A stretch of 63,993 nucleotides of DNA, the filler included, from a bacterium (GTDB lineage Bacteria > UBA9089 > CG2-30-40-21 > SBAY01), in assembly GCA_040757115.1 (NCBI GenBank). It is 8 parts of 8 records of this genome, joined end to end, with 100 filler letters (N's around TTAATTAATTAA, not from the genome) between each part and the next. Parts side by side here need not be neighbours in the genome. Positions count along the whole stretch, not along the records: positions 1 to 27,980 come from JBFLYA010000026.1; 7 more parts are not named here. The stretch is one strand, 5' to 3'. Shown here piece by piece: positions 399 through 16,931 of the stretch; the stretch's first letter is position 1, and each line of letters opens with the position of its first letter. The position numbers were made by a program, and so were the translations under genes. Under the pieces are notes generated by a model, which saw only the letters and a list, made by a program, of their open reading frames with translations, was not told where the DNA came from and searched no databases.

Positions 399-3300
399 AT
401 GAAAAAGATGAATAAAACAGAAATAAAACTTGAGCTGAAGGAAAAATGGCAGACTTTTACAGAATGGTATGGATTGGCTGGTAATGCAATCTTTTCAATC
501 ATAGAGGATAGGCAGGGCAACTTATGGTTTGGAACTAATGGAGGGGTAACGATGTATGATGGGAAGGATTGGAAAACTTGGACAACCAGGGATGGATTGG
601 CTAGTGATGCAGTCCGGTCAATCATAGAGGACAGGAAAGGCAATCTATGGTTTGGAACTTGGGAAAAAGGGGTAAGCAGGTATGATGGAAGAAAGTGGAA
701 AACCTTTACAGAAAAGGATGGATTGGCTCATAATTGGGTCACTTCAATCCTAGAGGACAGGCAGGGCAATCTATGGTTTGGAACTGATAGAGGGGTAACG
801 ATGTATGATGGAAGGAAGTGGAAACCCTTTAGGAAAACCTTTACAGAAAAGGATGGATTGGCTAGTAATGCAGTCTGGTCAATCATAGAGGACAGGCAGG
901 GCAACCTATGGTTTGGGACCACTGGAGGGGTAAGTATGTATGATGGGAGGAATTGGAAAACCTGGACAACCAAGGATAGATTGGCTGGTGATAGAATCCT
1001 TTCAATCCTAGAGGACAGGCAAGGCAACCTATGGTTTGGAACTTGGAGAGGAGAGGTAAGGAGGTATGATGGGAAGGATTGGAAAACTTGGACAATCAAG
1101 GATGGATTGCATAGTAATAAAGTCCATTCAATCCTAGAGGACAGGCAGGGCAACCTATGGTTTGGAACTGATAGAGGAGAGGTAAAGAGGTATGATGGAA
1201 GGAATTGGAAAACTTGGACAACCAAGGATAGATTGGCTAGTAATGAAGTCCGGTCAATTATAGAGGACAGACAAGGCAATCTGTGGTTTGGAACTGATAG
1301 AGGGGTAAGTATGTATGACGGAAGGGATTGGAAAACCTGGACAACCAAGAATGGATTGGCTGGTAATATCATAGAGGACAAGCAGGGTAATCTGTGGTTT
1401 GGAACTTGGGGAGGAGGGGTAACGATGTACGATGGAAAGGAGTGGAAAACCTGGACAACCAAGGATGGATTGGCTGGTAATATAGTCCTTTCAATCATAG
1501 AGGACAGAAAGGCTAATCTATGGTTTGGAACTTATGGAGAAGGGGTAAGCAGATACACCCCAACCCATATCCTGGCAAAGGGCTACATGGATGATAACAA
1601 AGGCTTGCTTTATCCGGTTATCTACCAAATATTTGAGGAGGCAAAAGAGCCTTCCTCTTCTCTCAAAGACCTTTGTGAGCTTTACCAGCAGGAAGGCAAT
1701 CAACAATTTGTCAATATCCTTAATGTCTATTACCAACTAAGCTTGTTTACAGAGACCAGCAGAGTAGGTGGAATGATTGCCAGACTAACCCAGAATCCCA
1801 AACCTATTCTATCAAGGCTGGTTGAGATACTTGCAGAGGCTAAAGGGCTTCCTCATGGTGATGAGGTTTATCTTACCTACAAAGTCTTCTATCAGCTTAC
1901 CAATTGCCGGGCAATTGAGGATATTATCATCACCAGGGTTGATCTAAATAAGCTGTTTAAATGTGAAGATGTATTGCGGAAAGGGACAATGAATGCTTTC
2001 AAGGGATTGAATGAGATTATAGAAGCCCTATCTAAGTATGAAGAGGTAGAAGAGGTTGAGGCTAAATCAAGCTATCTTACAGGTTCAATAAGTTTATGTG
2101 AGGAGGCAACAAGGTTTGTTGATAAGGGGGTTTTAGAGCCAGAAAGGACACTTTTGCTCTATCTCCTTCCCCAGATTAGGGAAATCATTGGAAGGGCACT
2201 TAAAGCCCTTACCGGAAGGGCAGAGATTGTATGTGAGCTTAAGACAAAAGAGATGCCATTCAGGGATGAGATAGAGGTAGTCTTAGAGGTTAGGAACATA
2301 GGAAATAGTGTAGCAGATGATATAGATATTGAGATTTTAACCTCTAATGATTATAAGTTTGGGATGACGGGGATAGCTGTATCTCCTATTTCTCCCAGGA
2401 AAGCTAGACAGGTCTCCTTTAGACTTAACCCTCTGAAAAAAGGGCAAATTAGATTGCAATTCAGGATTACCTACAGCGACTTTGAGGCAAAGGGAAAGAC
2501 AATAGATTTTGCTGACCAGATAAGTTTTATTGAAAGGCAGGAGACAGAATTTAGGGAGATTGAAAGTCCTTATATAACTGGTCTTCCTCTTGCTCCCCAG
2601 AGCACGCTTTTCGTTGGTCGAAGTGAAGCGTTTGACTTCATAGAGCGATACTTAAAATCGGTCTCCAAAAAGAATATTTTAGTTCTTACTGGCCAGCGAA
2701 GATTAGGAAAAACCTCTTTGCTTAATCAAGTAATCGTCAAATTTAGCTCTAATTATCTCCCTGTATTAATAGATGTTCAGGGAATAGACAGTGATTCAAC
2801 AGAGGCTAAGTTTCTGCTTACGCTTTCAGAAAAGATTCAAGAGTCAGCAGAAAATCAGGGAATTGAGCTTGAGCTACCCCCAAAAGAAGAATTTTATGAA
2901 AGACCCGCTTCTACCTTTGAGCGATTGTTCCTAAAAAAGGTCTATAAGCTATTGGGAGAAAAACAAATTCTTCTTATGTTTGATGAATTTGAGAGTTTTG
3001 AAAAAAAGGATGGATTGATGAGGGAAGATATATTCGATTATCTTCGCCACTTAATGCAACATACTCAGATTTCCTTTATCTTTACGGGCACCCATCGTTT
3101 AGAAGAAATGACTGGTAATTACTGGAATGTTTTATTTAATATAGGACTTTACCATCAGATTGGGGTTTTGAAAGAAAAAGAGAGTATCTCTTTAATCGTT
3201 AATCCAACAAAACAAGCTATGACATACGATAAGTTAGCTATTGACCGGATACTCAACCTGACTGCAGGACATCCTTACTTTATCCAGCTCATCTGTGATG

Positions 3301-3719
3301 AATTGGTCCATTTGCATAACAGAGAAAGAAAAAGTTATATAACCATTGAAGATGTAAATAATCAACTGGCAGAGATTATTAAATCAGGCTATAATCATTT
3401 TAAATTTATCTGGGATACAACTTCAAATAGAGAAAAGCTCTTACTCTCATTACTTCCCAAACTTCTTCCAATGTGGGAATCAAAAATTACCCTGTCAAAT
3501 ATTATCATTGCTTTAGCCGAAAATAAAATCCAGGCTAAAAAAGAGGATGTTACAGAAACATTAAGAAATCTTATGGCTAAAGAGATTGTCCAGGATATCT
3601 CAATAGATGGCATATCCGGTCATTATCGGTTCAAGGGGGATATTTACCGGGTGTGGTTAGAAAGGTATAAAAAGAGGGCGATAGATGAAGAAAAGATTAC
3701 CTGGGAGGAAAATGATTGA
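399..3719 (+). CDS. Reg_prop-type beta-propeller (9 repeats) + helical/Ig-like region + C-terminal STAND/AAA ATPase with wHTH
   Basis: 9x IEDRQGNLWFGT repeats. SPYITGLP..FVGR, Walker A GQRRLGKTS, Walker B LLMFDEFE and TAGHPYFIQ motifs. GAGG 8 nt before ATG 399. No signal peptide. Confidence 0.85.
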   Translation: MKKMNKTEIKLELKEKWQTFTEWYGLAGNAIFSIIEDRQGNLWFGTNGGVTMYDGKDWKTWTTRDGLASDAVRSIIEDRKGNLWFGTWEKGVSRYDGRKWKTFTEKDGLAHNWVTSILEDRQGNLWFGTDRGVTMYDGRKWKPFRKTFTEKDGLASNAVWSIIEDRQGNLWFGTTGGVSMYDGRNWKTWTTKDRLAGDRILSILEDRQGNLWFGTWRGEVRRYDGKDWKTWTIKDGLHSNKVHSILEDRQGNLWFGTDRGEVKRYDGRNWKTWTTKDRLASNEVRSIIEDRQGNLWFGTDRGVSMYDGRDWKTWTTKNGLAGNIIEDKQGNLWFGTWGGGVTMYDGKEWKTWTTKDGLAGNIVLSIIEDRKANLWFGTYGEGVSRYTPTHILAKGYMDDNKGLLYPVIYQIFEEAKEPSSSLKDLCELYQQEGNQQFVNILNVYYQLSLFTETSRVGGMIARLTQNPKPILSRLVEILAEAKGLPHGDEVYLTYKVFYQLTNCRAIEDIIITRVDLNKLFKCEDVLRKGTMNAFKGLNEIIEALSKYEEVEEVEAKSSYLTGSISLCEEATRFVDKGVLEPERTLLLYLLPQIREIIGRALKALTGRAEIVCELKTKEMPFRDEIEVVLEVRNIGNSVADDIDIEILTSNDYKFGMTGIAVSPISPRKARQVSFRLNPLKKGQIRLQFRITYSDFEAKGKTIDFADQISFIERQETEFREIESPYITGLPLAPQSTLFVGRSEAFDFIERYLKSVSKKNILVLTGQRRLGKTSLLNQVIVKFSSNYLPVLIDVQGIDSDSTEAKFLLTLSEKIQESAENQGIELELPPKEEFYERPASTFERLFLKKVYKLLGEKQILLMFDEFESFEKKDGLMREDIFDYLRHLMQHTQISFIFTGTHRLEEMTGNYWNVLFNIGLYHQIGVLKEKESISLIVNPTKQAMTYDKLAIDRILNLTAGHPYFIQLICDELVHLHNRERKSYITIEDVNNQLAEIIKSGYNHFKFIWDTTSNREKLLLSLLPKLLPMWESKITLSNIIIALAENKIQAKKEDVTETLRNLMAKEIVQDISIDGISGHYRFKGDIYRVWLERYKKRAIDEEKITWEEND

Positions 3720-5278
3720 TGGAAGATAAAGAGACCTTAAGATGGTATCTTCAAAGGAAAGACAACAAACTCTATCGTAAATTTGCTTCCATTGTTGATG
3801 ACCTTAAGCCAATTCTTAATAGAGCAAACCAACGCTACTATTCTGACCATGGGGAGGAGCACTGTAAAAATGTAGAGAAGAACTTAGATGAGCTTCTGCC
3901 AAAAAAGATAAAGAATGATATGCCTCCTGAGGAAATATTCTGCCTTCTTCTTTCTATCTGGTTTCATGACATTGGTTTGATTGTTGAAATGAAAGAGGAA
4001 GAACCCTACAAGGAAAGGAGAGCTACTCATTCAGAGAGGACATACAACTATATCCATCAAAATTATGAATACTGGAGATTAGATGAGCCTTATGCTTTTG
4101 CCATAAAAGAGATATGCTATGCCCATTCGGGAAGTATAGAAAAAATGAAAGAGATTAGCCAAAGCCCAATAATTATTGGTCGTTCTTATGTCAGAACTAA
4201 GTTTTTGGCAGGACTTTTGAGAATTGCAGATGAACTTGATATTGGCTTTTGGAAGGTTCCTGCTGAATTACTAAGGCTTTGGAAGGTGCCTGAGCAAGAG
4301 ATGCCTTTTTTATTGAAAGACAGGCTAACCTCAGGAATAAAGATTGACCCTGACCTTTTTGAGATTAGAATTAACTTGCTCCTGAAGGAAAAAGATAGGG
4401 AATTTTCTGATAAGATTGAAGAAATGATAGAGAAAAAGATTAAGAATGAGCTTATCTGCCTTAGGGAGACTCTTAGAGAGAATAACTTAGGCTATAGGGA
4501 TGTAGATATAATTGTAACAAATTTTGGTCTGCCAAAGACTGCTATACCCGAAGAAAAACCATCGCCACCAAAAATCATACCGGAAAATCCCTATATCTCA
4601 GGGGTGCCAATAAGAGAACCAGAGGATTTCTTTGGACGGCAGGAAGAGATAAAAAGGATAATTATGCGTCTAAATAAAGGAGAATCTTCCTCTATTATTG
4701 GCCCGAGAAAAATAGGTAAGACATCCCTTCTTTATCAACTTATCCATCCTTCCAAACTAAAAGAAGAATATGGAGTAAATCCTGAAGAGTATATATTTGC
4801 TTTTATTGATTTGCAGGGGAAAAGAGAATATACAGAGGCAGAGATGGTTAATCTTTTCTCTACACAAATAGGTAGAAAAGAGAACAAAGCCTCCTTTGAA
4901 TCGCTTGCAAAAGGATTGAAAGGGCTTAAAAATAATGGGCAAAAGACAGTCTTTATCCTTGATGAATTTGAGAATATGTGTGAGAATAAGAAAATAACCT
5001 CCAATTTTTATGGGAATTTGCGGTCATTGAATCAGGCATTCTTATGCTCTTATGTAACCACTTCTATGAAATCATTGGCTGATTTGACAGATGATAAAGA
5101 GATAAAAGATTCTCCATTCTTTAATATCTTTGAATCCATCTACTTAGGGGTATTGACGATGGAAGAAGCAAAGGATTTAATAGTTCTTCCTGCAAAAAGA
5201 AGGGAATTGATTTATCTAAATACTCTCAGTTTATTCTGGGTTATACGGGTTATCACCCATTTTTTATTCAAGTTTTAG
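3719..5278 (+). CDS. HD (HD-CE-like) domain + STAND ATPase; 3' end frameshifted
   Basis: DHGEEH...FHDIG...H..R...AH...LLRIADELD HD motifs. NPYISGVP..FFGR, GPRKIGKTS and FILDEFE. TGATG coupling to the upstream gene. The GxP motif (TGYHPFFIQ) lies in the -1 frame after ~5195. Confidence 0.8.
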   Translation: MEDKETLRWYLQRKDNKLYRKFASIVDDLKPILNRANQRYYSDHGEEHCKNVEKNLDELLPKKIKNDMPPEEIFCLLLSIWFHDIGLIVEMKEEEPYKERRATHSERTYNYIHQNYEYWRLDEPYAFAIKEICYAHSGSIEKMKEISQSPIIIGRSYVRTKFLAGLLRIADELDIGFWKVPAELLRLWKVPEQEMPFLLKDRLTSGIKIDPDLFEIRINLLLKEKDREFSDKIEEMIEKKIKNELICLRETLRENNLGYRDVDIIVTNFGLPKTAIPEEKPSPPKIIPENPYISGVPIREPEDFFGRQEEIKRIIMRLNKGESSSIIGPRKIGKTSLLYQLIHPSKLKEEYGVNPEEYIFAFIDLQGKREYTEAEMVNLFSTQIGRKENKASFESLAKGLKGLKNNGQKTVFILDEFENMCENKKITSNFYGNLRSLNQAFLCSYVTTSMKSLADLTDDKEIKDSPFFNIFESIYLGVLTMEEAKDLIVLPAKRRELIYLNTLSLFWVIRVITHFLFKF

Positions 5279-5333
5279 CCTCTTATATATTTGATGAGAG
5301 AATTAAAGGAGAACTAAAGGAGTAAAAGCTAAA

Positions 5334-8300
5334 GTGGAACTAAAGGATATAAAGAGAAGATTTATGGAAGATATGGTTGGTTTCTTCCGATACGACTGGA
5401 AACACAGGAGTAGTCTTGAGAAGGAGATTATAAGGAGACTTGTGGAAAGCCCAGAGGAAGAAAAACAAAGAATTATTCAACACTATCTGGATAATCATAG
5501 AAAAGCAGTAGATGACCTGGTGCGTGGTGGATACATCATTTACGAAGAAGAAAAATATAAACTGGTGCCGGCTTTTATAGAAGGCGGCCTTGATTGGTCT
5601 GGGTATGATGAGGAAATAGATGAGAGGATATTAAAAGGAGCAGGAACAATTGAGTCACTCCTGAGAAGACGCAATGAGATTGACGAGATAATAAGGAAGG
5701 AATATAAACAGAAAATTACGGTTATGTTCACTGATATTGTTGGCTCAACTGAATATTTTCTCACAAAGGGTGATATTGCCGGAAGGGCAATGGTGCAAAG
5801 GCATAATGATATGCTTTTCCCGATAATTGAGAAACACAATGGTAAGATAATCAAGACAATTGGCGATGCGATTATGGCAGGGTTTGAGAAGGCACAAAAT
5901 GGGGTTCTTGTTGCAATTGAGATGCAGAAAGCTTTAGCAAAATATAACCAAGGGGCAGAGGATAAAATCCAGATTAGAATTGGTATTCACACAGGCTTGG
6001 CAATCACTGAGCCAGATGACATCTATGGCGATACAGTTCATATTGCCGCAAGGATTGAAGCATTGGCAGAAGGTGACCAAATTCTCATTTCTGGAGAAAT
6101 ATTCAAAGAGATTGAGCAAGAAGGGTTTAACCTCCGTTTCCATGGCAAATACCTGCTAAAAGGGCTGATAGAAGATGTGCCAATCTATGAGGTTCTTTGG
6201 GATGAGAGCCAAAAGCCAAGGAAACCTGAGATAAAGGTTAAGCCAGAAAAAGGACAGGTTAAAATGCCTCCCAGCCTGCATAACCAACTTCCACCTGAGC
6301 CAAATTTTGTGGGAAGGGTTGAAATGCTTAAGGCGATCACAGATTGGTACAAATCCCCTGAGGTAAAGATCGGCGCATTAGTTGGCTGGGGTGGGGTGGG
6401 AAAATCGGCATTAGTCAGAAAGTGGTATGATAGCTTAAAAGAAAATAACATCCATCCGGATGGCATATTCTGGTGGGATTTCTATAAGCTCCCTTCCCTT
6501 GACCATTTCATTGCCGCATTATTTGCTTATCTCTCTCAAGATAGATTCAAACTTGATGACTACAAGACATCATGGCAGAAGATAGACAAAATAAAAGAGC
6601 TTCTCCTTGAAAGGGAATATCTCATTATCTTAGATGGACTGGAACAGATGCAAAAATCGCAAACCGGCGAAGAATTTGGTAAGATGCAGCACCCAGAATT
6701 TACCGACTTACTCAAATACATTGCTGATGCAGATTTTAAAGGCTTGTGCCTGATCACTACAAGGTTCCCTTTAACTGACATCAAGAATTACCCAGGCTAT
6801 CAAAAGATTGAGATAGAGGAGTTACCAAAAGAGGATACCTGGCTATTGTTTCAAAGAATTGGTGTAAGAGGAACAGAGGATGAGATAGATGACATCTGGA
6901 AAGAATTTAAGGGCCATACCCTAAGCCTTGTTCTTTTGGCAAATTATTTAGGCCCTGGTGGTGATATTAAAAAAGCAAAGGAAATTCCTCCATTCTATTC
7001 TGACCAGAAGGCAGGGGGTAAGGCACATCGAATCCTTCTTTGGTATGATAAGCAATTAAATGAAGAACAAAGAAGATTTATGAAGATATTCTCCCTGTTT
7101 AGGGGTGCAGTCTCGGAAAGGGAGTTTAAGGAGGTATTCCAAACCAGGGTAGATTTTCATTTCCAGAGAATGCTAAATGACCTTTGCCAGAGAAGGCTCA
7201 TTACCAAAGGTTCTGATAATACCTACACCACCCATCCTTTAATCAAGGGCTACTTTGAGTCTATATTTGATAAAAAAGAAAAGAAGCTAACCCATAAAGC
7301 AATCTATGAATACTTTGGAAAGAAAGCGCCTGATAAGCCTGAAACATTAGACCAGATGCGCCCCCTGTTTGAGCAGGTATATCATGGATGTTCGGCTAGA
7401 CTTTATGATAAGGTGGATGAGGATGTTTATTGGGGGAAAATTCAACGGAGAGAAGAAGGTTTTCTGGTATACAAACTTGGTGTCTGGGAAACCGACCTAT
7501 CCCTTGTCAGAACCTTCTTTCCGGATGGTGATCTTTCAAAGATGCCCCTTGTAAGTGAGAAGAGGGTCCGGGGCTGGTTGCTCAATGAAGCAGGACTGGC
7601 ACTTCTTAATACAGGCCGGCCAAAAGAGGCAGAGGAGCTTTTCGTTCGAAAGACAAATATGCAAATCGAAGACAAAGACCGGAAAAACGCCTCTGCGGGT
7701 TATCAAAACCTGGCTGACCTCTGGTTTCGAGTAGGTAGGCTCAAGGAGGCAAATGAGAGTGCGAAAAAGGCCATTGAGATGGCAGAGAAAGCAGAGTCTG
7801 AGCAGTATATCGTAATTTCAAAAGCCTATCTTGCCTGGATACTTCATCTTGCGGGCAAGGATGAGGAGGCAGAAAAGGAGTTTCAGCAGGCAGATGAACT
7901 TTCAAGAAAGATCAGTGGGTATCAGCTTTATGCTATGCGGGGAATTTTCTATGCTGACTTCCTCCTCTCAATCAAGCAGATTGATGAGGCTTTTGAACTT
8001 ACCAAAGCAAACCTTAAGATCTGCCAGAGGAATAATTTTGTAAACGAGATCTCAAGATGTCACCGCTTACTGGGTGCAATTGAAAGGATAAAGGGGAAGC
8101 AGAAGGAAGCTGAGCCCCATCTTCAGGAGGCCCTTGAGATTGCCAGAAAAGTTGGCATGCCAGAGCTTGAAATCGAAGCCTTGCTTGAGTTGAGCAGGTT
8201 GTGGTTGGATATGAAAAGATATAAAGAGGCTATCTCTCAGGCAAACCAGGTCCTGAAGCTATGTGAAAGAACAGGCTTTTTACTCTACGAACCCGAGGCA

Positions 8301-8453
8301 GAGCTAATCTTAGCCAGGGCATATCTGGGGTTAAATGATCTTGACCAGACCAAAACCTTCGCCCAATCCGCTTACCAAAAAGCCAGCCAGATGCACTACC
8401 ACTGGCCCAGGGTTGAGGCTGAGCAGCTACTGCGAAATCTGAATCCGTGTTGA
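5334..8453 (+). CDS. wHTH remnant + class III adenylate/guanylate cyclase + STAND (NB-ARC-like) NTPase + TPR repeats
   Basis: Cyclase motifs VMFTDIVGST, KTIGDA, IRIGIHTG and DIYGDTVHIAAR. NTPase motifs GWGGVGKS, LIILDGLE and GHTLSL. C-terminal TPR-like helices. Confidence 0.85.
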   Translation: MELKDIKRRFMEDMVGFFRYDWKHRSSLEKEIIRRLVESPEEEKQRIIQHYLDNHRKAVDDLVRGGYIIYEEEKYKLVPAFIEGGLDWSGYDEEIDERILKGAGTIESLLRRRNEIDEIIRKEYKQKITVMFTDIVGSTEYFLTKGDIAGRAMVQRHNDMLFPIIEKHNGKIIKTIGDAIMAGFEKAQNGVLVAIEMQKALAKYNQGAEDKIQIRIGIHTGLAITEPDDIYGDTVHIAARIEALAEGDQILISGEIFKEIEQEGFNLRFHGKYLLKGLIEDVPIYEVLWDESQKPRKPEIKVKPEKGQVKMPPSLHNQLPPEPNFVGRVEMLKAITDWYKSPEVKIGALVGWGGVGKSALVRKWYDSLKENNIHPDGIFWWDFYKLPSLDHFIAALFAYLSQDRFKLDDYKTSWQKIDKIKELLLEREYLIILDGLEQMQKSQTGEEFGKMQHPEFTDLLKYIADADFKGLCLITTRFPLTDIKNYPGYQKIEIEELPKEDTWLLFQRIGVRGTEDEIDDIWKEFKGHTLSLVLLANYLGPGGDIKKAKEIPPFYSDQKAGGKAHRILLWYDKQLNEEQRRFMKIFSLFRGAVSEREFKEVFQTRVDFHFQRMLNDLCQRRLITKGSDNTYTTHPLIKGYFESIFDKKEKKLTHKAIYEYFGKKAPDKPETLDQMRPLFEQVYHGCSARLYDKVDEDVYWGKIQRREEGFLVYKLGVWETDLSLVRTFFPDGDLSKMPLVSEKRVRGWLLNEAGLALLNTGRPKEAEELFVRKTNMQIEDKDRKNASAGYQNLADLWFRVGRLKEANESAKKAIEMAEKAESEQYIVISKAYLAWILHLAGKDEEAEKEFQQADELSRKISGYQLYAMRGIFYADFLLSIKQIDEAFELTKANLKICQRNNFVNEISRCHRLLGAIERIKGKQKEAEPHLQEALEIARKVGMPELEIEALLELSRLWLDMKRYKEAISQANQVLKLCERTGFLLYEPEAELILARAYLGLNDLDQTKTFAQSAYQKASQMHYHWPRVEAEQLLRNLNPC

Positions 8454-8542
8454 TTTGTGGGAATAGAAATAGAAAAAGTGTAGCCCAACATTCTATGTTG
8501 GCGGATAGAAATGGGGGATGGACAACTCAGGATAGAATCTTG

Positions 8543-8797
8543 GTATGTGTTTAGCGTGAGGATATTTTTTCCCGACGCTGAAGGCGTCAAACTTCACATA
8601 ACCGTAGATGCAATCTACGGAAGAAACACATACATGCACTCTGCAACCCTGAAAGGGTCGAATTTTATCCCTCGTTTAAAATTCAACCCTTTCAGGGTTG
8701 AGAAACATCGTAGATGTCCATTTCCGTAGGTTTCACCTACGGTTATGTTCAAACCTTTCAGGTTTGTATCCAATGCATAAATACGCTAAACACATAC
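8543..8797. mobile_element. MITE with GTATGTGTTTAGCGT terminal inverted repeats carrying REP-like hairpins (CCCTGAAAGGG, ACCGTAG..CTACGG)
   Basis: 15-bp perfect TIR at 8543-8557 and 8783-8797. The right part recurs inverted at 38613-38721. The same REP cargo occurs at 49005-49200. Confidence 0.75.
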
Positions 8798-8843
8798 TGG
8801 GCTACCAAGCTAATGTCAAAATGAGAACCGCTTTATGCCAGCC

Positions 8844-9190
8844 TATAGCGGTTATTAACTGGAAGTTTACATAGGATAATACCCATAAATAAGGCATGAG
8901 AATAATCGTTCCGTTAGGAACATAATATCGGTAGAATAGATAGCTAAATCAATCAGTTCCGTAGGAACGATATATTGGTAGAAATTATATTAATAATCAG
9001 GAAGAACATCACAAAAAAAAGAGTTTCAGTGAAGAATATAAAGAATTTTTGCGAGCATTTAACATTAATTATGATGAACGATATATTTTTAAACCGATTG
9101 AATTTTAACTATCTCATGCCTACGGCATTTATGTTTGTATGATATTTATTTCTACCGATATATTGTCCCTATGGGACATTATTTGTATGA
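8844..9190. repeat. REP-like palindrome cluster (GTTCCGTAGGAAC / ATGCCTACGGCAT / GTCCCTATGGGAC) starting at a TATAGCG end
   Basis: Short palindromes in inverted arrangement around a transposase remnant. 8844-8977 recurs inverted at 59946-60080. Confidence 0.7.
8983..9108 (+). pseudogene. C-terminal remnant of IS200/IS605-type (Y1/RAYT-like) transposase
   Basis: Translates NYINNQEEHHKKKSFSEEYKEFLRAFNINYDERYIFKPIEF*, matching the YIxNQ catalytic-Tyr tail of Y1 transposases. Not in the ORF track. Confidence 0.8.
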
Positions 9191-9336
9191 TATTTATTTC
9201 TGCTCTAATAGACCAGGGTGAGGAAAAGTTGATAAAGGATTTGTTTGATTCTATGCTCGCAGGCTGGAAAAAGAAAATACTAAATATCCTGAAGAAATTT
9301 GGAGGAGAAAGGATATTAAACATCTTAGAGGAGTAA
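9190..9336 (+). pseudogene. Probable 3' remnant of an unidentified gene
   Basis: Protein-like helix ISALIDQGEEKLIKDLF...ILNILEE*. The 5' part of the listed ORF is repeat DNA. Confidence 0.3.
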
Positions 9337-9353
9337 AATCCATTAAGTGTGGA

Positions 9354-9523
9354 GGGGAAACGCTCATGCCCACAGGAAGTGGGCACAAACGAAGATGAAA
9401 ATAAGTAGTAAGCGGATTTAGCGGATTGAGCAGATAAAAAATCCGATTAATCCGCTCAATCCGATTACTAAAAAATAAAAATCTGTGTAATCTGCGAAAT
9501 CTGCGGATTATTTTCAGGGGAAA
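9354..9523 (+). repeat. Single unit of the GAAAC-hairpin-TGAAAAT...ATTTTCAGGGGAAA family with GCGGATT/AATCCG cargo
   Basis: GGGGAAA at both ends. The right end sits 9 nt before ATG 9533. Confidence 0.75.
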
Positions 9524-9532
9524 TAGAATACC

Positions 9533-11869
9533 ATGAACTACAGTAAAGCATATCCATATTTAAAGGCCCTTCTGGAGGCATTGATAGAGGTAATAAAGCT
9601 AATACCAGTGGTAGGGAACCCTCTTGCTAAGTTTATCTCATCCTTATTTGAACAACTCAAGGTTTGGGACAAGAAGGAGATTAAACAGTTCGAATCTAGT
9701 CTCCACAATCAGACTCCACCTGAACCAAACTTTGTAGGTAGAATTGAGATGTTAAAGGCGATCACAGATTGGTATGGCTCACCTAAGGTAAAGATAGGCG
9801 CATTAGTCGGCTGGGGTGGTGTAGGGAAATCGGCATTGGTCAGAAAGTGGTTTGATAGCCTGAAAGAAAATAACCTCCATCCGGATGGCATATTCTGGTG
9901 GGGATTCTATCGCAATCCTTATCTTGAGCGTTTCCTTGAGGCATTATTTGTCTATCTTTCCCAGGATAGATTCAAACTTGATGACTACAAGACATCCTGG
10001 CAGAAGACTGATAAAATAAAAGAGCTTCTTTTGGAAAGGGAATATCTCATTATCTTAGATGGCTTGGAGGAGATGCAGAAATCGCAAAGCGGTGAAGAAT
10101 TTGGTAAGCTGCAACACCCAGAATTTACCGACTTACTCAAATCCATTGCTGATGCAGATTTTAGAGGCTTGTGCCTGATAACTACAAGGTTTCCTTTGAC
10201 TGACATCAAGAATTACCCAGGCTATCAAAAGCTTGAGATAGAGGAATTATCCAGAGAGGATACCCGGCTATTGTTTCAAAGGATTGGGGTAAGAGGAACA
10301 GAGGATGAGATAGATGACCTCTGGAAAGAATTTAAAGGCCATACCCTGAGCCTTGTTCTCCTGGCAAATTATTTAGGCCCTGGGGGTGATATTAAGAGAG
10401 CAAAGGAAATACCGCCATTTTATTCAGACCAGGAGGCAGGAGGAAAGGCGCGCAGAATGCTTCTTTGGTATGATAAACAATTAAATGAAGAACAAAGAAG
10501 TTTTATGAAGATATTCTCCCTCTTTAGGGGTGCAGTCTCTGAAAGGGAGTTTAAGGGAGCATTCCAAACCAGGGTGGATTTTCATTTTCAGAGAATGCTA
10601 AATGACCTTTGCCAAAGAAGGCTCATTACCAAAGGCTCTGATAATACCTACACCACCCATCCCTTAATCAAGGGCTACTTTGAGTCTATCTTTGATGAAG
10701 AAGAAAAGAGGCTGACCCATAAGGCAATCTATGAATACTTTGGAAAGATGGCAAAAGATATGCCAGAGACACTGGAAGAAATGCAACCCCTGTTTGAGCA
10801 GGTATATCATGGATGTTCTGCTGAGCTTTATGATGAAGTGCTTTATGATGTTTATTGGGAGAAAATTCAACGGGGACAAAAAGGTTTCCTGGTATACAAA
10901 CTTGGTGCCTGGGAGACTGATTTATCTCTTATAAGAAACTTCTTCCCAGACGAAGACCTTTCAAAGATGCCGCTTGTAAGTGAAAAGAGCAAACAGAGCT
11001 GGCTGCTCAATGAAGCAGGACTGGCACTTCTTTCTACAGGCCGGCCAAAAGAGGCAGAGGAGCCATTTTTGACAGCAGTCCGGATGGGTGTTGAGGCAAA
11101 AGACTGGGAAAACGCCTCTACGGGTTATCAAAACTTGACTGGCCTCCGGTTTCGAGCAGGTAGGCTCAAGGAGGCAAATGAGGGTGCCAAAAAGGCACAT
11201 GATGCAGCAGAGAAGGCAGGGTCTGAGAAGAATATCCGTAATTCAAAAGCCTATCTTGCCTGGATACTTCATCTCTTAGGTAAAGATGAGGAGGCAGAAA
11301 AGGGGTTTCAGCAGGCAGATGAACTTGAAAGAAAGATCAGTGGGTATCGGGATTACAGTATAACTGGAGTTTTCTATGCTGACTTCCTGATCTCAATCAA
11401 GCAGATTGATGAGGCTTTTGAACTTACCAAAGCAAACCTTGAGATCTGCCAGAGTGAAAATTGGCCGGATGATATCTCAAGATGTCACCGCTGCTTAGCT
11501 GCCATTGAAAGGCTAAAGGGAAACCATAAAGAAGCTGAGACCCATCTTCAGCAGGCTTTTGAGATTGCTCGCAGGGTGGGCGTTCCTGATCTTGAAATCG
11601 AAGCCTTGCTTGAGTTGAGCAGGTTGTGGTTGGATATGAAAAGATATAAAGAGGCTATCTCTCAGGCAAACCAAATCCTGAAGCTATGTGAAAGAACAGG
11701 CTTTTTACTCTACGAACCCGATGCAGAGCTAATCTTAGCCAGGGCATATCTGGGGTTAAATGATTTTGACCAGACCAAAACCTTCGCCCAATCCGCTTAC
11801 CAAAAAGCCAGCCAGATGCACTACCACTGGCCCAGGGTTGGGGCTGAGCAGCTACTGCGAAATCTGTAA
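9533..11869 (+). CDS. STAND (NB-ARC-like) NTPase + TPR with short N-terminal helical domain; paralog of 5334-8453
   Basis: Aligns with 5334-8453 from SLHNQ onward (GWGGVGKS, LIILDGLE). Unique ~55-aa amphipathic N-terminus. Confidence 0.88.
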   Translation: MNYSKAYPYLKALLEALIEVIKLIPVVGNPLAKFISSLFEQLKVWDKKEIKQFESSLHNQTPPEPNFVGRIEMLKAITDWYGSPKVKIGALVGWGGVGKSALVRKWFDSLKENNLHPDGIFWWGFYRNPYLERFLEALFVYLSQDRFKLDDYKTSWQKTDKIKELLLEREYLIILDGLEEMQKSQSGEEFGKLQHPEFTDLLKSIADADFRGLCLITTRFPLTDIKNYPGYQKLEIEELSREDTRLLFQRIGVRGTEDEIDDLWKEFKGHTLSLVLLANYLGPGGDIKRAKEIPPFYSDQEAGGKARRMLLWYDKQLNEEQRSFMKIFSLFRGAVSEREFKGAFQTRVDFHFQRMLNDLCQRRLITKGSDNTYTTHPLIKGYFESIFDEEEKRLTHKAIYEYFGKMAKDMPETLEEMQPLFEQVYHGCSAELYDEVLYDVYWEKIQRGQKGFLVYKLGAWETDLSLIRNFFPDEDLSKMPLVSEKSKQSWLLNEAGLALLSTGRPKEAEEPFLTAVRMGVEAKDWENASTGYQNLTGLRFRAGRLKEANEGAKKAHDAAEKAGSEKNIRNSKAYLAWILHLLGKDEEAEKGFQQADELERKISGYRDYSITGVFYADFLISIKQIDEAFELTKANLEICQSENWPDDISRCHRCLAAIERLKGNHKEAETHLQQAFEIARRVGVPDLEIEALLELSRLWLDMKRYKEAISQANQILKLCERTGFLLYEPDAELILARAYLGLNDFDQTKTFAQSAYQKASQMHYHWPRVGAEQLLRNL

Positions 11870-12090
11870 CCGTTCAGGTAATCCTTTACCGCAGAGACGC
11901 AAGAGTTCGCAGAGAGGAAAATATCTTTTTTTTCGTGTTTTTCGCGTTTTTCGGTGTTTAAAAAGGCTTAAAAACAGTTAGTCGAAAGTAAGTATTAAAA
12001 GATTAATAAACAGGGAAAGACCCGAAATGCACAAAAAAAGGAAATTTCTGTCTCTGGTGAATAGATTTTAATTTTTTCTCTGCGTCTCTG

Positions 12091-12562
12091 GTAACCGTTC
12101 ACCGCAGAGACACAGAGACGCAGAGAAGAAAATTAAAATTTATGGACGATACGCTTAATCCCATCCTTGAGCACAGGAACATTAAAATTGATCAACAAAC
12201 CTACCCTTTTATTTATCATTTTTAAGTAGGTTAAAAGCTGTGCCTCATGAATTGGAAGTAATTGCTCCACAGTTTTTAATTCTACCACAACTTCTTCTTC
12301 AACAAGAAGATCTAACCGATAGCCACAATCTAATCTAACTCCTTTGTATCTTACAGGTAATTCAACCTGCCTTTTAAAATGTAACCCTAATATTGATAAC
12401 TCATAACATAAACATTCTTCATAGGCAGATTCCAACAAACCTGCTCCCAATGTTTTATGTATTTCAATGGCTGCACCAATAATCTTTTCTGTTATCTAAT
12501 TTATTTCCATGTCTTCTCTGTTCCTCTGCGTCTCTGCGGTAAATTACCACCTGAACGGTTAC
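12091..12562. mobile_element. GTAACCGTTCA...TGAACGGTTAC TIR element carrying a GxxExxY gene between ACCGCAGAGAC(A/G)CAGAG inverted repeats
   Basis: 11-bp TIRs. Deleted sister copies at 16478-16761, 31494-31804 and 57685-58014. Confidence 0.8.
12133..12510 (-). pseudogene. GxxExxY (PD-(D/E)XK-like) protein with nonsense codon at position 5
   Basis: [33 protein letters not shown]...RLDLLVE..VVVELK...GLLINF. The sister copy at 31752 has CAG where this copy has TAG. Confidence 0.85.
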
Positions 12563-12571
12563 AAAATTTGA

Positions 12572-12600
12572 TTGACAGAAATCAGAAACTGTGATAGAAT
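12572..12600 (+). promoter_or_regulatory. sigma70 promoter
   Basis: TTGACA-17-TAGAAT, with an AGGAGG RBS downstream. Confidence 0.8.
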
Positions 12601-12629
12601 AAACTTGTAAAGTTAATGAAATAGGAGGA

Positions 12630-13070
12630 ATGATAAAGATGATTAAGAAAATGATAGGTGGAGTAATATGTTTCCTTATTCTTACCCCTCAAGTTTATTC
12701 CGAGGAGGTTTATAAGATAGGAATTGAAGAGCGGCTCATTCGATTAGAAGAAGGACAGAAGGCATTGAATCAGAGATTTGATGATATGAATCAGAGATTT
12801 GATGATATGAATCAGAGATTGAACGATATGATGGGGATAATGCTTAGCGGTTTTGGGGTTTTGTTGGCTGGGATGTTTAGCCTGACTGGTTTTGTCATCT
12901 GGGACCGCAGAACGGCTATTGCCCCTGTGGCTAAGAAAACTCGAAAATTAGAAGAGGAAGAAGAGTTGATAGTAAAAGCTCTTTTAGAGTATGCAAATGT
13001 TGAACCAAAGATGCAAAAAGTACTCACCAGGTTAGGGCTTTATAAAAAGGAATTGCTTATCTCAACCTGA
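12630..13070 (+). CDS. Signal-peptide/coiled-coil/TM protein (WDRRT motif), copy 1
   Basis: Hydrophobic N-terminus, NQRFDDM heptads, TM helix, own promoter and RBS. Confidence 0.85.
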   Translation: MIKMIKKMIGGVICFLILTPQVYSEEVYKIGIEERLIRLEEGQKALNQRFDDMNQRFDDMNQRLNDMMGIMLSGFGVLLAGMFSLTGFVIWDRRTAIAPVAKKTRKLEEEEELIVKALLEYANVEPKMQKVLTRLGLYKKELLIST

Positions 13071-13088
13071 ACTTAGGTAAATAAACGG

Positions 13089-13390
13089 GTAACTATTCCC
13101 CACGAAGGGCACGGAGAGCACGAAGTGAAATTTGATGAATTATCGAATTCATGAAGCTCAAATATTAACATATATGGTAATACGTCAGTTATTTGGGGAA
13201 ATGAACATTAACCTGCGGAGGACAAAGCAATGAAAATAGTAGGCAAGTAGGTAGTAGGTAAGTAGGAAAGGGATAAAGGATGTGCACGGTATTCCTCTTC
13301 TGGGGGCAATGTCTCCCCCTTTCCTACTCTCCTACTTCCTACTTTCAGGAGAATCCCCCATTTCACTGACTCATTACCTTACAGGTCGAA
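13089..13390. mobile_element. Nested MITE composite (GTAACTATTC end > GxxExxY remnant > GGTAAT..ATTACC element 13176-13378)
   Basis: Nearly identical to 48081-48382. Confidence 0.75.
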
Positions 13391-13406
13391 AATATTTAAA
13401 ATTTGA

Positions 13407-13435
13407 TTGACAGAAATCAGAAACTGTGATAAAAT
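13407..13435 (+). promoter_or_regulatory. sigma70 promoter
   Basis: TTGACA-17-TAAAAT. Confidence 0.8.
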
Positions 13436-13464
13436 AAAATTGTAAAGTTAATGAAATAGGAGGA

Positions 13465-13926
13465 ATGATAAAGATGATTAAGAAAATGATAGGTGGAGTA
13501 ATATGTTTCCTTATTTTTACCCCTCAAGTTTATTCCGAGGAGGTTTATAAGATAGGGATTGAAGAACGGCTCATTCGATTAGAAGAAGGACAGAAGACAC
13601 TGAATCAAAGATTGGATGATATAAATCAGAGATTTAATGATATGAATCAGAGATTTGATGATATGAATCAGAGATTGAACGATATGATGGGGATAATGCT
13701 TAGCGGTTTTGGGGTTTTGTTGGCTGGGATGTTTAGCCTGACTGGTTTTGTCATCTGGGACCGCAGAACGGCTATTGCCCCTGTGGCTAAGAAAACTCGA
13801 AAATTAGAAGAGGAAGAAGAGTTGATAGTAAAAGCTCTTTTAGAGTATGCAAATGTTGAACCAAAGATGCAAAAAGTACTCACCAGGTTAGGGCTTTATA
13901 AAAGGGAATTGCTTATCTCAACCTGA
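13465..13926 (+). CDS. Signal-peptide/coiled-coil/TM protein, copy 2 (+7 aa)
   Basis: Near-identical to copy 1 with one extra heptad. Confidence 0.85.
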   Translation: MIKMIKKMIGGVICFLIFTPQVYSEEVYKIGIEERLIRLEEGQKTLNQRLDDINQRFNDMNQRFDDMNQRLNDMMGIMLSGFGVLLAGMFSLTGFVIWDRRTAIAPVAKKTRKLEEEEELIVKALLEYANVEPKMQKVLTRLGLYKRELLIST

Positions 13927-13945
13927 ACTTAGGTAAATAAACGGG

Positions 13946-14182
13946 GTAACCGTTCAGGCTATATATCAAAAGTGTAAGAAAGGGGATAAGGAGATAAGAG
14001 TGATATGGAGATAAGATAATAGAAATAGATTGAAATTTATAGAAATAGGTAGAAATTGATTGTGGAAAACAACAAATTTCCATAAATTTCTATTAGTTTC
14101 TATTAATTTCAATTTTTTTAATAATATCTCCCTATCTCCTTAATCTCCACATCTCCTTTTGTTACACCACCTGAACGCTTAC
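13946..14182. mobile_element. GTAAC-TIR MITE with GGAGATAA/TTATCTCC inverted cargo
   Basis: GTAACCGTTCAGG...CCTGAACGCTTAC. The right half is repeated at 33457-33575. Confidence 0.75.
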
Positions 14183-14191
14183 AAAATTTGA

Positions 14192-14220
14192 TTGACAGAA
14201 ATCAGAAACTGTGATAGAAT
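14192..14220 (+). promoter_or_regulatory. sigma70 promoter
   Basis: TTGACA-17-TAGAAT. Confidence 0.8.
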
Positions 14221-14249
14221 AAAATTGTAAAGTTAATGAAATAGGAGGA

Positions 14250-14744
14250 ATGATAAAGATGATTAAGAAAATGATAGGTGGAGTAATATGTTTCCTTATT
14301 CTTACCCCTCAAGTTTATTCCGAGGAGGTTTATAAGATAGGGATTGAAGAACGGCTCATTCGATTAGAAGAAGGACAGAAGACACTGAATCAGAGATTGG
14401 ATGATATAAATCAGAGATTTAATGATATGAATCAGAGATTTGATGATATGAATCAGAAATTTAATCAGAGATTTGATGATATGAATCAGAGATTGAACGA
14501 TATGATGGGGATAATGCTTAGCGGTTTTGGGGTTTTGTTGGCTGGGATGTTTAGCTTGACTGGTTTTGTCATCTGGGACCGCAGAACGGCTATTGCCCCT
14601 GTGGCTAAGAAAACTCGAAAATTAGAAGAGGAAGAAGAGTTGATAGTAAAAGCTCTTTTAGAGTATGCAAATGTTGAACCAAAGATGCAAAAAGTACTCA
14701 CCAGGTTAGGGCTTTATAAAAAGGAATTGCTTATCTCAACCTGA
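14250..14744 (+). CDS. Signal-peptide/coiled-coil/TM protein, copy 3 (+18 aa)
   Basis: Near-identical to copies 1 and 2, with an extra 7+11 residues. Confidence 0.85.
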   Translation: MIKMIKKMIGGVICFLILTPQVYSEEVYKIGIEERLIRLEEGQKTLNQRLDDINQRFNDMNQRFDDMNQKFNQRFDDMNQRLNDMMGIMLSGFGVLLAGMFSLTGFVIWDRRTAIAPVAKKTRKLEEEEELIVKALLEYANVEPKMQKVLTRLGLYKKELLIST

Positions 14745-14872
14745 ACTTAGGTAAATAAACGGTAAATATTGTTCCATAGCCAGCGGTTTTACTTTCCATC
14801 ATTATCCTGCCGTGGTAATCGTTCAGGCTCACCTGTAAAATCTGTATTTATCTGCGTCCAATATAATTTCCT

Positions 14873-15835
14873 ATGGATTCAAGAGAAAAAATGCAAATAC
14901 TTGAAATTAAAGATTTAAATGTGCAATATAAAACCTCCAGAGGCTGTGTTAAAGCAGTAGATGGAGTATCTTTTGGGCTAAAAAAAGGTGAAGCGATTGG
15001 ATTAGTCGGTGAATCTGGATGTGGAAAAACATCTGTGGCGATGGCAATTATGAAACTTTTACCAAACAACGCTCAAATAATCTCTGGTCAGATACTCTTT
15101 AAAGATGAAGACTTAATCCCAAAGACAGATAAACAGATGCAAAAAATACGCTCAAGGTGTATTTCTTTGATTTTTCAATCGGCAATGAATGCCTTAAATC
15201 CAGTATATCGGGTTGAAAATCAAATAATTGAGGTAATCAGAAGGCATATCGCAATCACTAAAAAAGACGCCAGGATAAGGGTAAAAGAATTGTATGATTT
15301 AGTTGGAATGGATTATAGTTTTGCCAGGCAGTATCCCCATGAATATAGTGGTGGGATGAAACAACGGGCAATAATAGCTATGGCACTTGCCTGTAATCCA
15401 GAGATTATTATTGCGGATGAGCCGACAACCGCTTTAGATGTTATTGTTCAAGACCAGATAATAAAAAAAATCGTTGAAATTCAACATAAACTTAATATGG
15501 CTCTTATTTACATCTCACATGATATTGGGGTTATTGCGGAAACCTGCAATCGAGTGGCCGTAATGTATGCGGGGAAAATAATGGAATATGCACCAACGAA
15601 AATGCTTTTTAATACCCCACTGCATCCCTATACTCAAGGGCTTTTATCTTCTTACCCCACTATATCTGGTGAGAAAAGAAAATTATCCTCAATTCCACTT
15701 GAGTCAATGAATAAGTTTAATTCTGATGTTATTTGTAGCTTTTACCAGAGATGTTCATTTTCAAAGGATATTTGTAGGGAACAAAAACCTGTGTATCGTG
15801 AGATTGAAAAGGAACACTGGGTTTTATGTCATTAA
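14873..15835 (+). CDS. Oligopeptide/dipeptide ABC transporter ATP-binding subunit (OppD/DppD-like)
   Basis: GESGCGKT, YSGGMKQR, IADEPTTALD, HPYTQGL and a C-terminal Cys cluster. Confidence 0.9.
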   Translation: MDSREKMQILEIKDLNVQYKTSRGCVKAVDGVSFGLKKGEAIGLVGESGCGKTSVAMAIMKLLPNNAQIISGQILFKDEDLIPKTDKQMQKIRSRCISLIFQSAMNALNPVYRVENQIIEVIRRHIAITKKDARIRVKELYDLVGMDYSFARQYPHEYSGGMKQRAIIAMALACNPEIIIADEPTTALDVIVQDQIIKKIVEIQHKLNMALIYISHDIGVIAETCNRVAVMYAGKIMEYAPTKMLFNTPLHPYTQGLLSSYPTISGEKRKLSSIPLESMNKFNSDVICSFYQRCSFSKDICREQKPVYREIEKEHWVLCH

Positions 15836-15851
15836 GGAGGTGAATTTAATA

Positions 15852-16187
15852 ATGGAAAGGGTTAATGAAAACGAAAAGGAATACCGCGGCGGTGATTCTG
15901 GGCCAAAATACCTATTTCGAGGGCAAAGAATGGAATGGGGGATTATCCGATTTAAGTCGGGGCAAACATTAGGGGCTCATTTTCATAATGAGGTAGAAGA
16001 AACCTTTTTTTTCATTTTCGGAACGCCTCAAATGGTGATTGATAACCAGAGTTATCGAGTTAAAGAAGGGGACGCATTTAAGATTTTACCAAAGGAAAAA
16101 CATGATATAATCAATGACACAGAAGAAACAATAAGAATTATCTTCATTAAAGTCCCTTATTTGCCAGAAGATAAGGTGAATTGTTGA
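15852..16187 (+). CDS. Cupin domain protein
   Basis: HFHNEVEETF..G...GD....P.EKH motif. AGGAGG RBS before ATG 15852. Confidence 0.85.
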   Translation: MERVNENEKEYRGGDSGPKYLFRGQRMEWGIIRFKSGQTLGAHFHNEVEETFFFIFGTPQMVIDNQSYRVKEGDAFKILPKEKHDIINDTEETIRIIFIKVPYLPEDKVNC

Positions 16188-16220
16188 GTTAACGACAACC
16201 CTTTAACTTGCTTATATTTC

Positions 16221-16888: not shown

Positions 16889-16931
16889 AATATTTTTTAC
16901 CCATAAATTTTACACGCACCCAAAAAACCAG

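Follow-up and report, generated by a model that had tools for sequence, protein, structure and literature searches.

Within the window, by which we mean the whole 63,993-nucleotide stretch of DNA analysed here, positions 399-11869 hold four co-oriented open reading frames (ORFs) on the plus strand, named A to D, each bearing one STAND NTPase module by ORF and Pfam scans. We read this cluster, with a probability of roughly 0.5, as a sensor/executor pair of STAND proteins fused to a cyclase-bearing NLR module, of conflict type, whose executor is broken in this strain. Gene A would be the sensor, and the executor would be the gene that two frameshifts have divided into ORFs B and C. The reading is carried by the conserved pairing of the two STAND types across genomes, by a domain order that runs through B and C as one ancestral frame, and by the variability of the locus between strains. 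The host is uncultured and the source is a groundwater metagenome. The window is chromosomal, with dnaA and dnaN at 35.6-38.2 kb and also clpB, pnp and purine genes.

Four STAND genes and one broken frame

The features of the locus are listed below. Profile positions refer to a custom profile built from 25 nSTAND2 proteins.

396/399-3719, plus strand: gene A, sensor-type STAND of about 1106-1107 amino acids (aa), with propeller, helical linker, CARDB-like Ig domain and C-terminal STAND NTPase
447-1566, plus strand: Reg_prop propeller repeats of A (PF07494, 192 bits, 8 stretches; cut-off 20.4)
2250-2468, plus strand: CARDB-like beta-sandwich of A, ahead of the STAND (19.1 bits, below the 22.7 cut-off)
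2559-3716, plus strand: A-type STAND NTPase (ATPase_2 40.2 bits, AAA_22 41.1 bits, AAA_35)
3717-3721, plus strand: TGATG stop/start overlap of A and B (TGA 3717-3719, ATG 3719-3721)
3716/3719-5278, plus strand: ORF B in its present form, about 519-520 aa, HD-CE and the P-loop core of nSTAND2
3836-4393, plus strand: HD-CE phosphohydrolase domain of B (PF24391, 104 bits; cut-off 27)
4583-5218, plus strand: nSTAND2 NTPase core of B, profile positions 2-221, Walker A GPRKIGKTSL, Walker B DEFE
5194-5198, plus strand: frameshift 1, an A5 run in which an extra A in the X2 strain restores the frame
5194-5325, plus strand: middle piece of nSTAND2 in a second frame (GYTGYHPFFIQ...IKGELKE), profile positions 218-267, stop TAA 5323-5325
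5307-5322, plus strand: frameshift 2, placed between the last stop of the C frame and the stop that ends the middle frame
5334-8453, plus strand: ORF C, 1039 aa from GTG 5334, with the winged-helix end of nSTAND2, class III cyclase, NB-ARC and TPR
5334-5645, plus strand: C residues 1-104, the C-terminal winged-helix part of nSTAND2, profile positions 260-332
5697-6164, plus strand: class III nucleotide cyclase domain of C (Guanylate_cyc, PF00211, 82.3 bits; cut-off 21.9)
6303-6890, plus strand: NB-ARC NTPase of C (PF00931, 45.6 bits; cut-off 23.5)
7560-8390, plus strand: TPR sensor region of C (Pfam)
8454-9532, no strand: C-D spacer with hairpin and inverted repeats
9533-11869, plus strand: gene D, 778 aa, a head of ~55 aa followed by NB-ARC (35.6 bits; cut-off 23.5) and TPR

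The original prediction, made from the DNA alone, had seen four STAND domains in co-oriented genes, the first two of one type and coupled by TGATG, the last two NB-ARC-like with TPRs, and all of these points were borne out. By BLASTP the STANDs of A and B are paralogues, aligning over 231 aa at 29% identity (E 2e-12), and they have in common the motifs xPYIxGxP...FxGR, G(x)R(x)xGKTSLL and DEFE. In A the Walker A motif reads GQRRLGKTSL and Walker B reads DEFE, a GHPYF motif is present, and every column that is invariant in the A-type family alignment is retained. The CARDB-like stretch is part of a conserved pre-STAND region in that family, with homologues 35-41% identical along about 95% of residues 560-1107. 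Against Pfam nSTAND2 (PF20702), B scores 63.5 bits (cut-off 24) over only profile positions 15-201 of 279; A has no PF20702 row and is tied to nSTAND2 by BLASTP and by the custom profile, with which A-type ORFs score about 100-130 bits. A GGAGGA sits ten bases upstream of the B start. D is a paralogue of C, 80% identical to the C-terminal 74% of it. Its N-terminal head belongs to no family (Pfam to E 1 returned chance-level rows only), and a protein search with D residues 1-66 gave no usable match. PDB sequence searches gave no close solved relative for D or for the A-type profile: the structures nearest D are the PH0952 TPR (E 5e-7) and the wheat Sr35/CNL9 NB-ARC (E 0.003), with no others, and the A-type profile has 2fna as its sole match (E 4e-4).

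Two further observations concern the locus as a whole. The LWFGT motifs in the A propeller number nine by eye, as against the eight Pfam stretches, and within these repeats a repetitive 256-aa antisense ORF lies at 728-1498 on the minus strand, most likely a by-product of the repeat structure and no gene. Promoter and terminator scans of the locus came out near shuffle expectation.

The B and C frames belong together. Because the nSTAND2 profile is colinear across the three frames listed above, we take B and C to be one frame whose nSTAND2 module is cut by two 1-nt shifts; the final ~25 residues of ORF B are out of frame. Read through, B-C is about 1,578 aa with the order HD-CE, nSTAND2, class III cyclase, NB-ARC, TPR. 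The middle piece at 5194-5325 is colinear with an intact protein of another genome of the same order, G011, which has the same stretch in one ORF, and in 42 of 42 partner rows aligned a near-complete nSTAND2 module (profile end at least 330) lies in a single ORF. The HD-STAND-cyclase-STAND-TPR protein that had been predicted therefore stands as an ancestral single frame with a parallel in G011. It does not stand for the present copy, with its two frameshifts and a histidine at a conserved cyclase asparagine.

Are the shifts real? That they are sequencing or assembly errors, with the gene intact in the cell, we regard as very improbable. Both are single-base shifts in A-rich sequence, one of them in a homopolymer, which is what this explanation has in its favour. 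Against it, an independent Logan contig of run X1, at a word depth of 316, is identical to the window at the shifts, although X1 may be the window's source. The other long ORFs of the window are intact (1715, 853 and 1107 aa). In run X2 of the same study, representing a strain ~97% identical, one A is inserted behind 5193 (one contig, depth 8.3), and frameshift 1 is polymorphic between strains (window/X1 versus X2). Frameshift 2 is gap-free in the one X2 contig across 5303-5683 and so is common to both strains; this contig also carries 27 unlike letters upstream of 5303. As far as can be told, then, the frameshifts are genuine. Programmed ribosomal frameshifting was also considered and was rejected, since neither site has a slippery heptamer, by reading, and one site is polymorphic.

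The X2 strain and the window differ by 24 substitutions, 12 synonymous and 12 non-synonymous against a rough neutral expectation of about 1:3, plus an in-frame 3-nt indel, which suggests that the B-C gene was under some constraint until recently. Because of the two frameshifts and the lost cyclase asparagine, the copy of the cluster in this strain is probably inactive or decaying, or made as separate pieces.

A recurrent pair of A-type and nSTAND2 genes

To follow the A-B adjacency beyond the window, 80 loci were chosen by similarity to the A-type module alone, and their ORFs were classed with two profiles. This gave 79 A-type ORFs in 78 of the 80 loci (L048 and L074 gave none), of which 59 adjoin an nSTAND2-type gene. 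Where at least 1.5 kb of flank is present on both sides, an nSTAND2 gene adjoins the A-type gene in 45 of 52 cases. Among these 52 the partner is co-oriented within 400 bp in 40, often overlapping, divergent within 700 bp in 5 and at 0.7-2.4 kb in 5; the 2 without a partner are the tandem A-types of L076. The earlier proposal that the propeller-STAND protein partners the product of the next gene thus gains a recurrent adjacency.

The two families divide their labour. The C-terminal 548 residues of A (560-1107) align with relatives along about 95% of their length at 30-41% identity, and the A-type N-termini vary, with VCBS/FG-GAP, Reg_prop or WD40 propellers, GAF, Cache-HAMP-GAF, HEAT, ankyrin or TPR. 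A-type proteins bear sensor domains and no enzyme output. The nSTAND2 partners, in turn, consist of a STAND and an output with no repeats, and relatives of the B nSTAND2 carry Ser/Thr kinase, GerE, winged helix-turn-helix, cyclase or REC domains. Walker A and Walker B are kept in 43 of 43 rows of each alignment, the window A and B included. In both partners no row departs from the Gly and Lys of Walker A or from the first Asp of Walker B, and the other residues of the two motifs vary little or not at all. Judged by these motifs, both partner NTPases are apparently active.

Co-folding of the STAND modules of an intact Anaerolineales pair, L012, gave 0.56 (runs 0.56, 0.54, 0.58) where the best of 3 controls gave 0.00, with at least 78% contact agreement between runs and a predicted local distance difference test score (pLDDT) of at least 82 for the partners. 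Of 80 solved complexes 58 reach the mark applied, and of 110 mismatched pairs 2 do; with a score no higher than 0.60 it is reached by only 7 of the 80 solved complexes, plus both passing mismatches. The L012 model thus lends weak support to an A-type/nSTAND2 partnership.

We propose the following mechanism for the system in its intact form. The beta-propeller of A would bind a ligand, upon which the STAND NTPase of A would switch on. The STAND modules of A and of the executor (HD-CE, nSTAND2, cyclase, NB-ARC, TPR) would then co-assemble into a mixed oligomer, and this oligomer would gather the attached enzyme domains and so activate them. Class III cyclases work as dimers, and activation by proximity would therefore suit the cyclase. 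The NB-ARC-TPR half would give the same cyclase a second, TPR-based input, and D would be a paralogous NB-ARC-TPR receptor with a different N-terminus.

A-type genes also occur alone. Two congeneric genomes have solo A-type genes of 1235-1274 aa with no nSTAND2 partner nearby, at L121 (G007:C442) 1716-6052 and L122 (G009:C134) 6963-11191. In both, an AMP-binding enzyme gene lies further upstream of the cheW and A-type genes.

Enzyme domains, swapped heads and competing readings

The HD-CE domain looks intact in its motifs: across 21 sequences, of which B is one, H49, the HD-motif H84 and D175 do not vary. The Foldseek comparison suggested with the original prediction was run on a predicted HD-CE model (pLDDT 87); it gave no PDB match at E 0.001 or better, and the model showed a general HD fold only. 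Fold comparison placed it nearest the GppA/PPX C-terminal domain (Z 14.0, root-mean-square deviation (rmsd) 3.4, 179 aligned), followed by PDE1B (Z 10.8, rmsd 5.0, 226 aligned), HD-GYP (Z 8.7) and Cas3-HD (Z 8.1, rmsd 3.5, 130 aligned). Since Z under about 13 may mean little for helical folds, the HD-CE substrate is not readable from these matches. The original prediction supposed that the executor could both make and hydrolyse a nucleotide signal, a possibility to which neither this general fold nor the scanned neighbours, with no cyclic-nucleotide-binding effector among them, lend support. Elsewhere HD-CE lies N-terminal to nSTAND1-HEAT in 9 of 16 scanned proteins (P0326, P0329, P0330, P0342, P0344, P0346, P0358, P0375, P0423) and adjoins CHAT in 1 of the 16 (P0328).

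The cyclase is another matter. In class III cyclases an asparagine is a transition-state residue, and metal aspartates and a Lys/Asp pair have roles of their own. The cyclase of C has the metal Asp residues and the Lys/Asp pair; the full catalytic set is not present, and His236 (6039-6041) stands at the position where 8 of 8 aligned homologues have Asn. From its sequence, the window cyclase is probably impaired.

Behind the cyclase, the NB-ARC-TPR part of C belongs to a crowded family. C matches more than 500 proteins, and the matches listed include 119 non-self proteins that are 47-85% identical over NB-ARC-TPR. The heads among these 119 listed relatives, by precomputed Pfam, are HNH (17), DUF4062 (8) and cyclase (7), with TIR, trypsin, methyltransferase and HTH once each. 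By these assignments the NB-ARC-TPR part is a large family that swaps N-terminal effectors. A 2026 preprint names DUF4062 a TIR-like NADase of an antiphage system.

The same swapping is visible between close strains. The nearest genome, G001, has 42% of the window 31-mers in common with it and an oppD-like gene that is 98% identical. Orthologues of A and B are missing from G001, the best matches there being other STANDs at 36% and 31% identity. Its sole copy of the NB-ARC-TPR family has an HNH head and an in-frame TAG (610 + 224 aa). There, at L110 (G001:C76) 4555-7463, a PIN_3 gene is followed by the split HNH-NB-ARC-TPR gene; the latter thus follows a PIN gene and an oppC-like permease, and repeats of the C-D spacer come after it. 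Its 80% identity to D sets in only at residue 53, which means that the N-terminal head has been swapped between the two strains. The spacer at 8454-9532 is built from hairpins and inverted repeats, among them 8596-8622/8722-8748 and 8956-8985/9148-9177, and these units are multi-copy in G001. These comparisons fit a site that varies, at which effectors are swapped and genes often die. G001 C76, where the island follows an oppC-like gene, and the window, where it precedes an oppD-like gene, may mark one chromosomal site; both G001 contigs end in repeats.

Because the locus is strain-variable and the NB-ARC-TPR family swaps nuclease, NADase and protease heads, we consider a conflict or defence-like role the most likely one; an immune role is plausible but unproven. 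Ordinary signal transduction is possible and, in our judgement, somewhat unlikely. On that account the pair would do with two proteins what STAND regulators like MalT or AfsR do with one: an environmental or cellular ligand on the sensor repeats would switch on a kinase, a phosphatase, a transcription factor or, here, a cyclase, the cyclase would make a cyclic-AMP-like second messenger, and the HD domain would reset the signal. The outputs of the 59 partners, which are mainly regulatory across the pair family, favour it. They comprise Pkinase (25), Trans_reg_C (10), BTAD (2), GerE (1), HD_5 (1), CHAT (2, one with EAD7), caspase (1) and TIR_2 (1), while 16 have no further domain, 2 of these being truncated. 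A further 26 nSTAND2 proteins, which were hand-picked, mostly long and with N-terminal nSTAND2, and are no random sample, add SpoIIE phosphatase (4), a sigma-54 activator (1) and a cyclase (1), besides CHAT (5), TIR (1), BTAD (1) and a second STAND (3). A-type sensors that include Cache-HAMP-GAF and GAF point the same way.

The surroundings of the pairs also favour signalling. We scanned one ORF of 130-700 aa on each side of the pair where present, 92 in all. No Pfam match at 1e-8 was found for 48 of these nearest flanking ORFs. Those with families are mostly housekeeping (SecDF, adenylosuccinate synthetase, cytidylate/guanylate kinases, peptidases), and conflict-like ones are few (caspase, PIN, XPB-like helicase). 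Among the things that would count against it, the original prediction had named homologues that never co-occur and homologues in housekeeping contexts. The homologues do co-occur, as counted above, but their nearest neighbours are mostly housekeeping or unassigned and the partner outputs mostly regulatory. In G007 and G009 the solo Reg_prop A-type gene stands directly after cheW. PADLOC, which had been put forward as a check, matched no known-system model with the four proteins and returned only weak PycC (29.6 bits, E 1e-7), TPR and PDC-S rows. NCBIfam had no model at cut-off, the best partial matches of C and D being AfsR-type TPR regions, far below it. All of this weighs against a conflict-type system, and so do several points of another kind. 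The pair loci are mostly Chloroflexota metagenome-assembled genomes, which are kin and not independent samples, the remainder being Thermoplasmata or Methanomassiliicoccales, Acidobacteriota and Bacillota. The co-fold was made on a homologous pair, not on the window proteins, and may reflect a resemblance to solved AAA+/STAND rings. No cyclic-nucleotide-binding, TIR or comparable downstream effector was found among the scanned cluster neighbours, and the two frameshifts with the Asn-to-His change speak against this copy working as described.

Other observations tell against signalling. The same chassis also bears TIR, caspase, CHAT and EAD7, and the outputs in the window are HD-CE and an NB-ARC-TPR part whose relatives bear HNH, DUF4062, TIR and trypsin. 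The locus is absent from G001 despite the 98% identical flanking gene, with PIN and an HNH-NLR there instead, and broken copies in both strains fit dispensable, costly genes. As a family, A-type/nSTAND2 has the appearance of an all-purpose switch made of two proteins, serving regulation in most cases and death-type outputs in some. For the window cluster itself we continue to prefer the conflict-type sensor/executor pair.

The fusion of B to C raises a separate question. Stand-alone cyclase-NB-ARC-TPR genes of 934-1131 aa exist in relatives (P0004, which is G018:C34, and G005), and their homology to C begins only at residue 105. Since C residues 1-104 belong to nSTAND2, the junction in C is a lineage-specific fusion. 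There may be no functional coupling at all: the island would be a variable one with an independent A-B pair, a cyclase-NLR and a second NLR, and B::C would be a chimeric pseudogene from a deletion that joined two neighbours and has been decaying since. We think this improbable. It would account for an HD-CE-nSTAND2-cyclase-NB-ARC-TPR architecture that is unique among all partners seen, occurring in none of the 59 nor in the other listed nSTAND2 matches; this uniqueness, taken with the stand-alone genes, means that the fusion could be an accident, which again weakens our reading. The two frameshifts and the His at the conserved Asn, a locus rich in repeats and the broken NB-ARC-TPR copy of G001 are in line with it as well. 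Against a chance junction, however, the frame is kept from the winged helix into the pre-cyclase helix, with no stop or intergenic remnant. The X2 comparison shows fewer amino-acid changes than expected without selection. G011 has a parallel cluster: its gene 1, of the Reg_prop A-type, matches A at 33% identity along 823 aa; gene 2 overlaps it and is an intact 937-aa ORF with nSTAND2 (34% identical to the B core), a middle that is CHAT-like at 20.7 bits, below cut-off, and then NB-ARC; and gene 3 is NB-ARC-TPR. At only 27-34% identity, the G011 chain is not a recent copy. Other single chains place an effector between two STANDs (P0331, P0456, P0333, P0388, P0405). Contig searches with B alone found no relative, and with C residues 1-355 a single distant cyclase only.

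One of the stand-alone genes was viewed in its context. At L109 (G018:C34) 11394-16911 the cyclase-NB-ARC-TPR gene occupies 12831-16085 on the minus strand, is overlapped upstream by a 288-aa ORF without a Pfam family, and has a PLDc_2 gene adjoining.

The DNA downstream of the cluster is also repeat-rich. Inverted repeats of 42 nt, 86% complementary, stand at 11860-11901 and 12527-12568 on either side of a PDDEXK_3 gene (12133-12450, minus strand, 130 bits). Parts of 11860-12568 occur in dozens of G001 places at 80-97% identity, and the unit has the look of a family of small mobile elements. Next, at 12630-14744, come three small paralogues in tandem (146, 153 and 164 aa), each with a signal-peptide-like start, a coiled coil with varying NQRFDDMNQR-type repeats and one hydrophobic helix; the middle copy scores 24 bits with XhlA, below cut-off. 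Repeats of ~240-300 nt at about 13926-14190 and 16475-16762 have at least 20 copies at 93-100% identity in G001 and probably explain its fragmentation into 770 contigs. Overlapping plus-strand ORFs at 14873-15835 (ABC_tran/oligo_HPY ATPase) and 15726-16187 are together 98% identical to G001:C72, and 14873-16187 could be a frameshift or two genes. GC skew is positive to about 16 kb and negative at 16-19 kb, with dnaA at 35.6 kb. No tRNA, sought as an island landmark, was found in 1-24000.

Relation to known systems

Plants, animals and bacteria all rely on STAND/NLR receptors as a core part of their immunity, and the bacterial STANDs studied so far are mostly single chains with sensor, switch and effector. 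Plants also have paired or helper NLRs, in which a sensor NLR works with an executor NLR. A bolder form of our reading, which is speculative and which we think unlikely as a whole, is that these are prokaryotic paired NLRs: sensor and executor STANDs would co-assemble in a mixed ring, and here, with the effector held between two STANDs, one cyclase or HD output would integrate the propeller (through the partner) and the TPRs (in cis), making a three-NTPase logic gate. If true, prokaryotes would have, in a widespread pair of apparently active paralogous NTPases, their own equivalent of the sensor/helper NLR pairs of plants. One chassis driving regulatory and death-type outputs would bear on how immune receptors and signalling switches interconvert. 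The intact L012 pair and G011 cluster make the paired-STAND model directly testable; the window copy itself is of limited use, with its executor gene broken and its cyclase probably impaired.

The likeness to plant pairs is that a sensor STAND and an effector STAND are encoded side by side, and it goes no further than analogy: the two kinds of pair differ in STAND clades, domains and orientation, and neither common descent nor the same assembly is implied. MalT and AfsR/SARP are single-chain NTP-switched STAND regulators with repeat sensors and regulatory outputs. The pair resembles them in the NTP-switched STAND and in the BTAD, GerE and winged helix-turn-helix outputs of its family. It is unlike them in that sensor and output are on two paralogous STAND proteins, and the window copy has HD-CE, a cyclase and an NLR module.

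Among defence systems, the order effector-STAND-TPR in C, and in D with its short unassigned head, is that of Avs/AVAST and bNACHT as far as the published texts describe them (10.1101/2023.09.22.558884; 10.64898/2026.01.04.697583), and the NB-ARC-TPR family of C and D likewise swaps N-terminal effectors. The A-B pair departs from this order. A is a sensor followed by a STAND and B an effector and a STAND without a sensor, which splits sensor and effector over two proteins, and C is fused behind another STAND. At a threshold of E 0.01, PADLOC returned no Avs or bNACHT row for the four proteins. A survey of 589 STAND clades classed 198 as associated with defence, with defence and non-defence clades interspersed (10.64898/2026.01.04.697583). 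The resemblance to Pycsar/Pucsar and CBASS-type systems, as their descriptions go, is that a class III-type cyclase could make a nucleotide signal on activation, alongside the weak PycC matches. Unlike Pycsar, the cyclase is embedded between two STANDs, and no neighbouring gene for a cyclic-nucleotide-binding transmembrane or TIR effector was found; the conserved cyclase Asn is His in the window. The combination of HD-CE, STAND and effector was not found in the literature searched. Nor was a description of an active-active sensor/executor STAND pair, which is no proof of its absence.

The closest precedent comes from Kaur, Iyer, Burroughs and Aravind (2021), who predicted a two-gene nSTAND2 counter-invader operon and proposed a hetero-multimer (PMC8195603). 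In view of that operon, to call the present cluster undescribed, as the original prediction did, was too strong, though one of the two STANDs there is inactive by the published description. The likeness is considerable: two adjacent STAND genes of nSTAND2 kind, a proposed hetero-multimer and variable effector modules fused to it. We set the A-B pair apart by the text description of the operon, and the two may overlap. As described, the NTP-binding motifs are eroded in one STAND of the operon, and the effector, mostly GT4 or HEPN, is fused to that STAND (PMC8195603). A and B types, in contrast, both have intact Walker A and B across their 43 rows each; none of the 59 partners bears GT4 or HEPN, and in the window their place is taken by HD-CE and a cyclase. 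Here, moreover, the sensor repeats are on one partner and the output is on the other.

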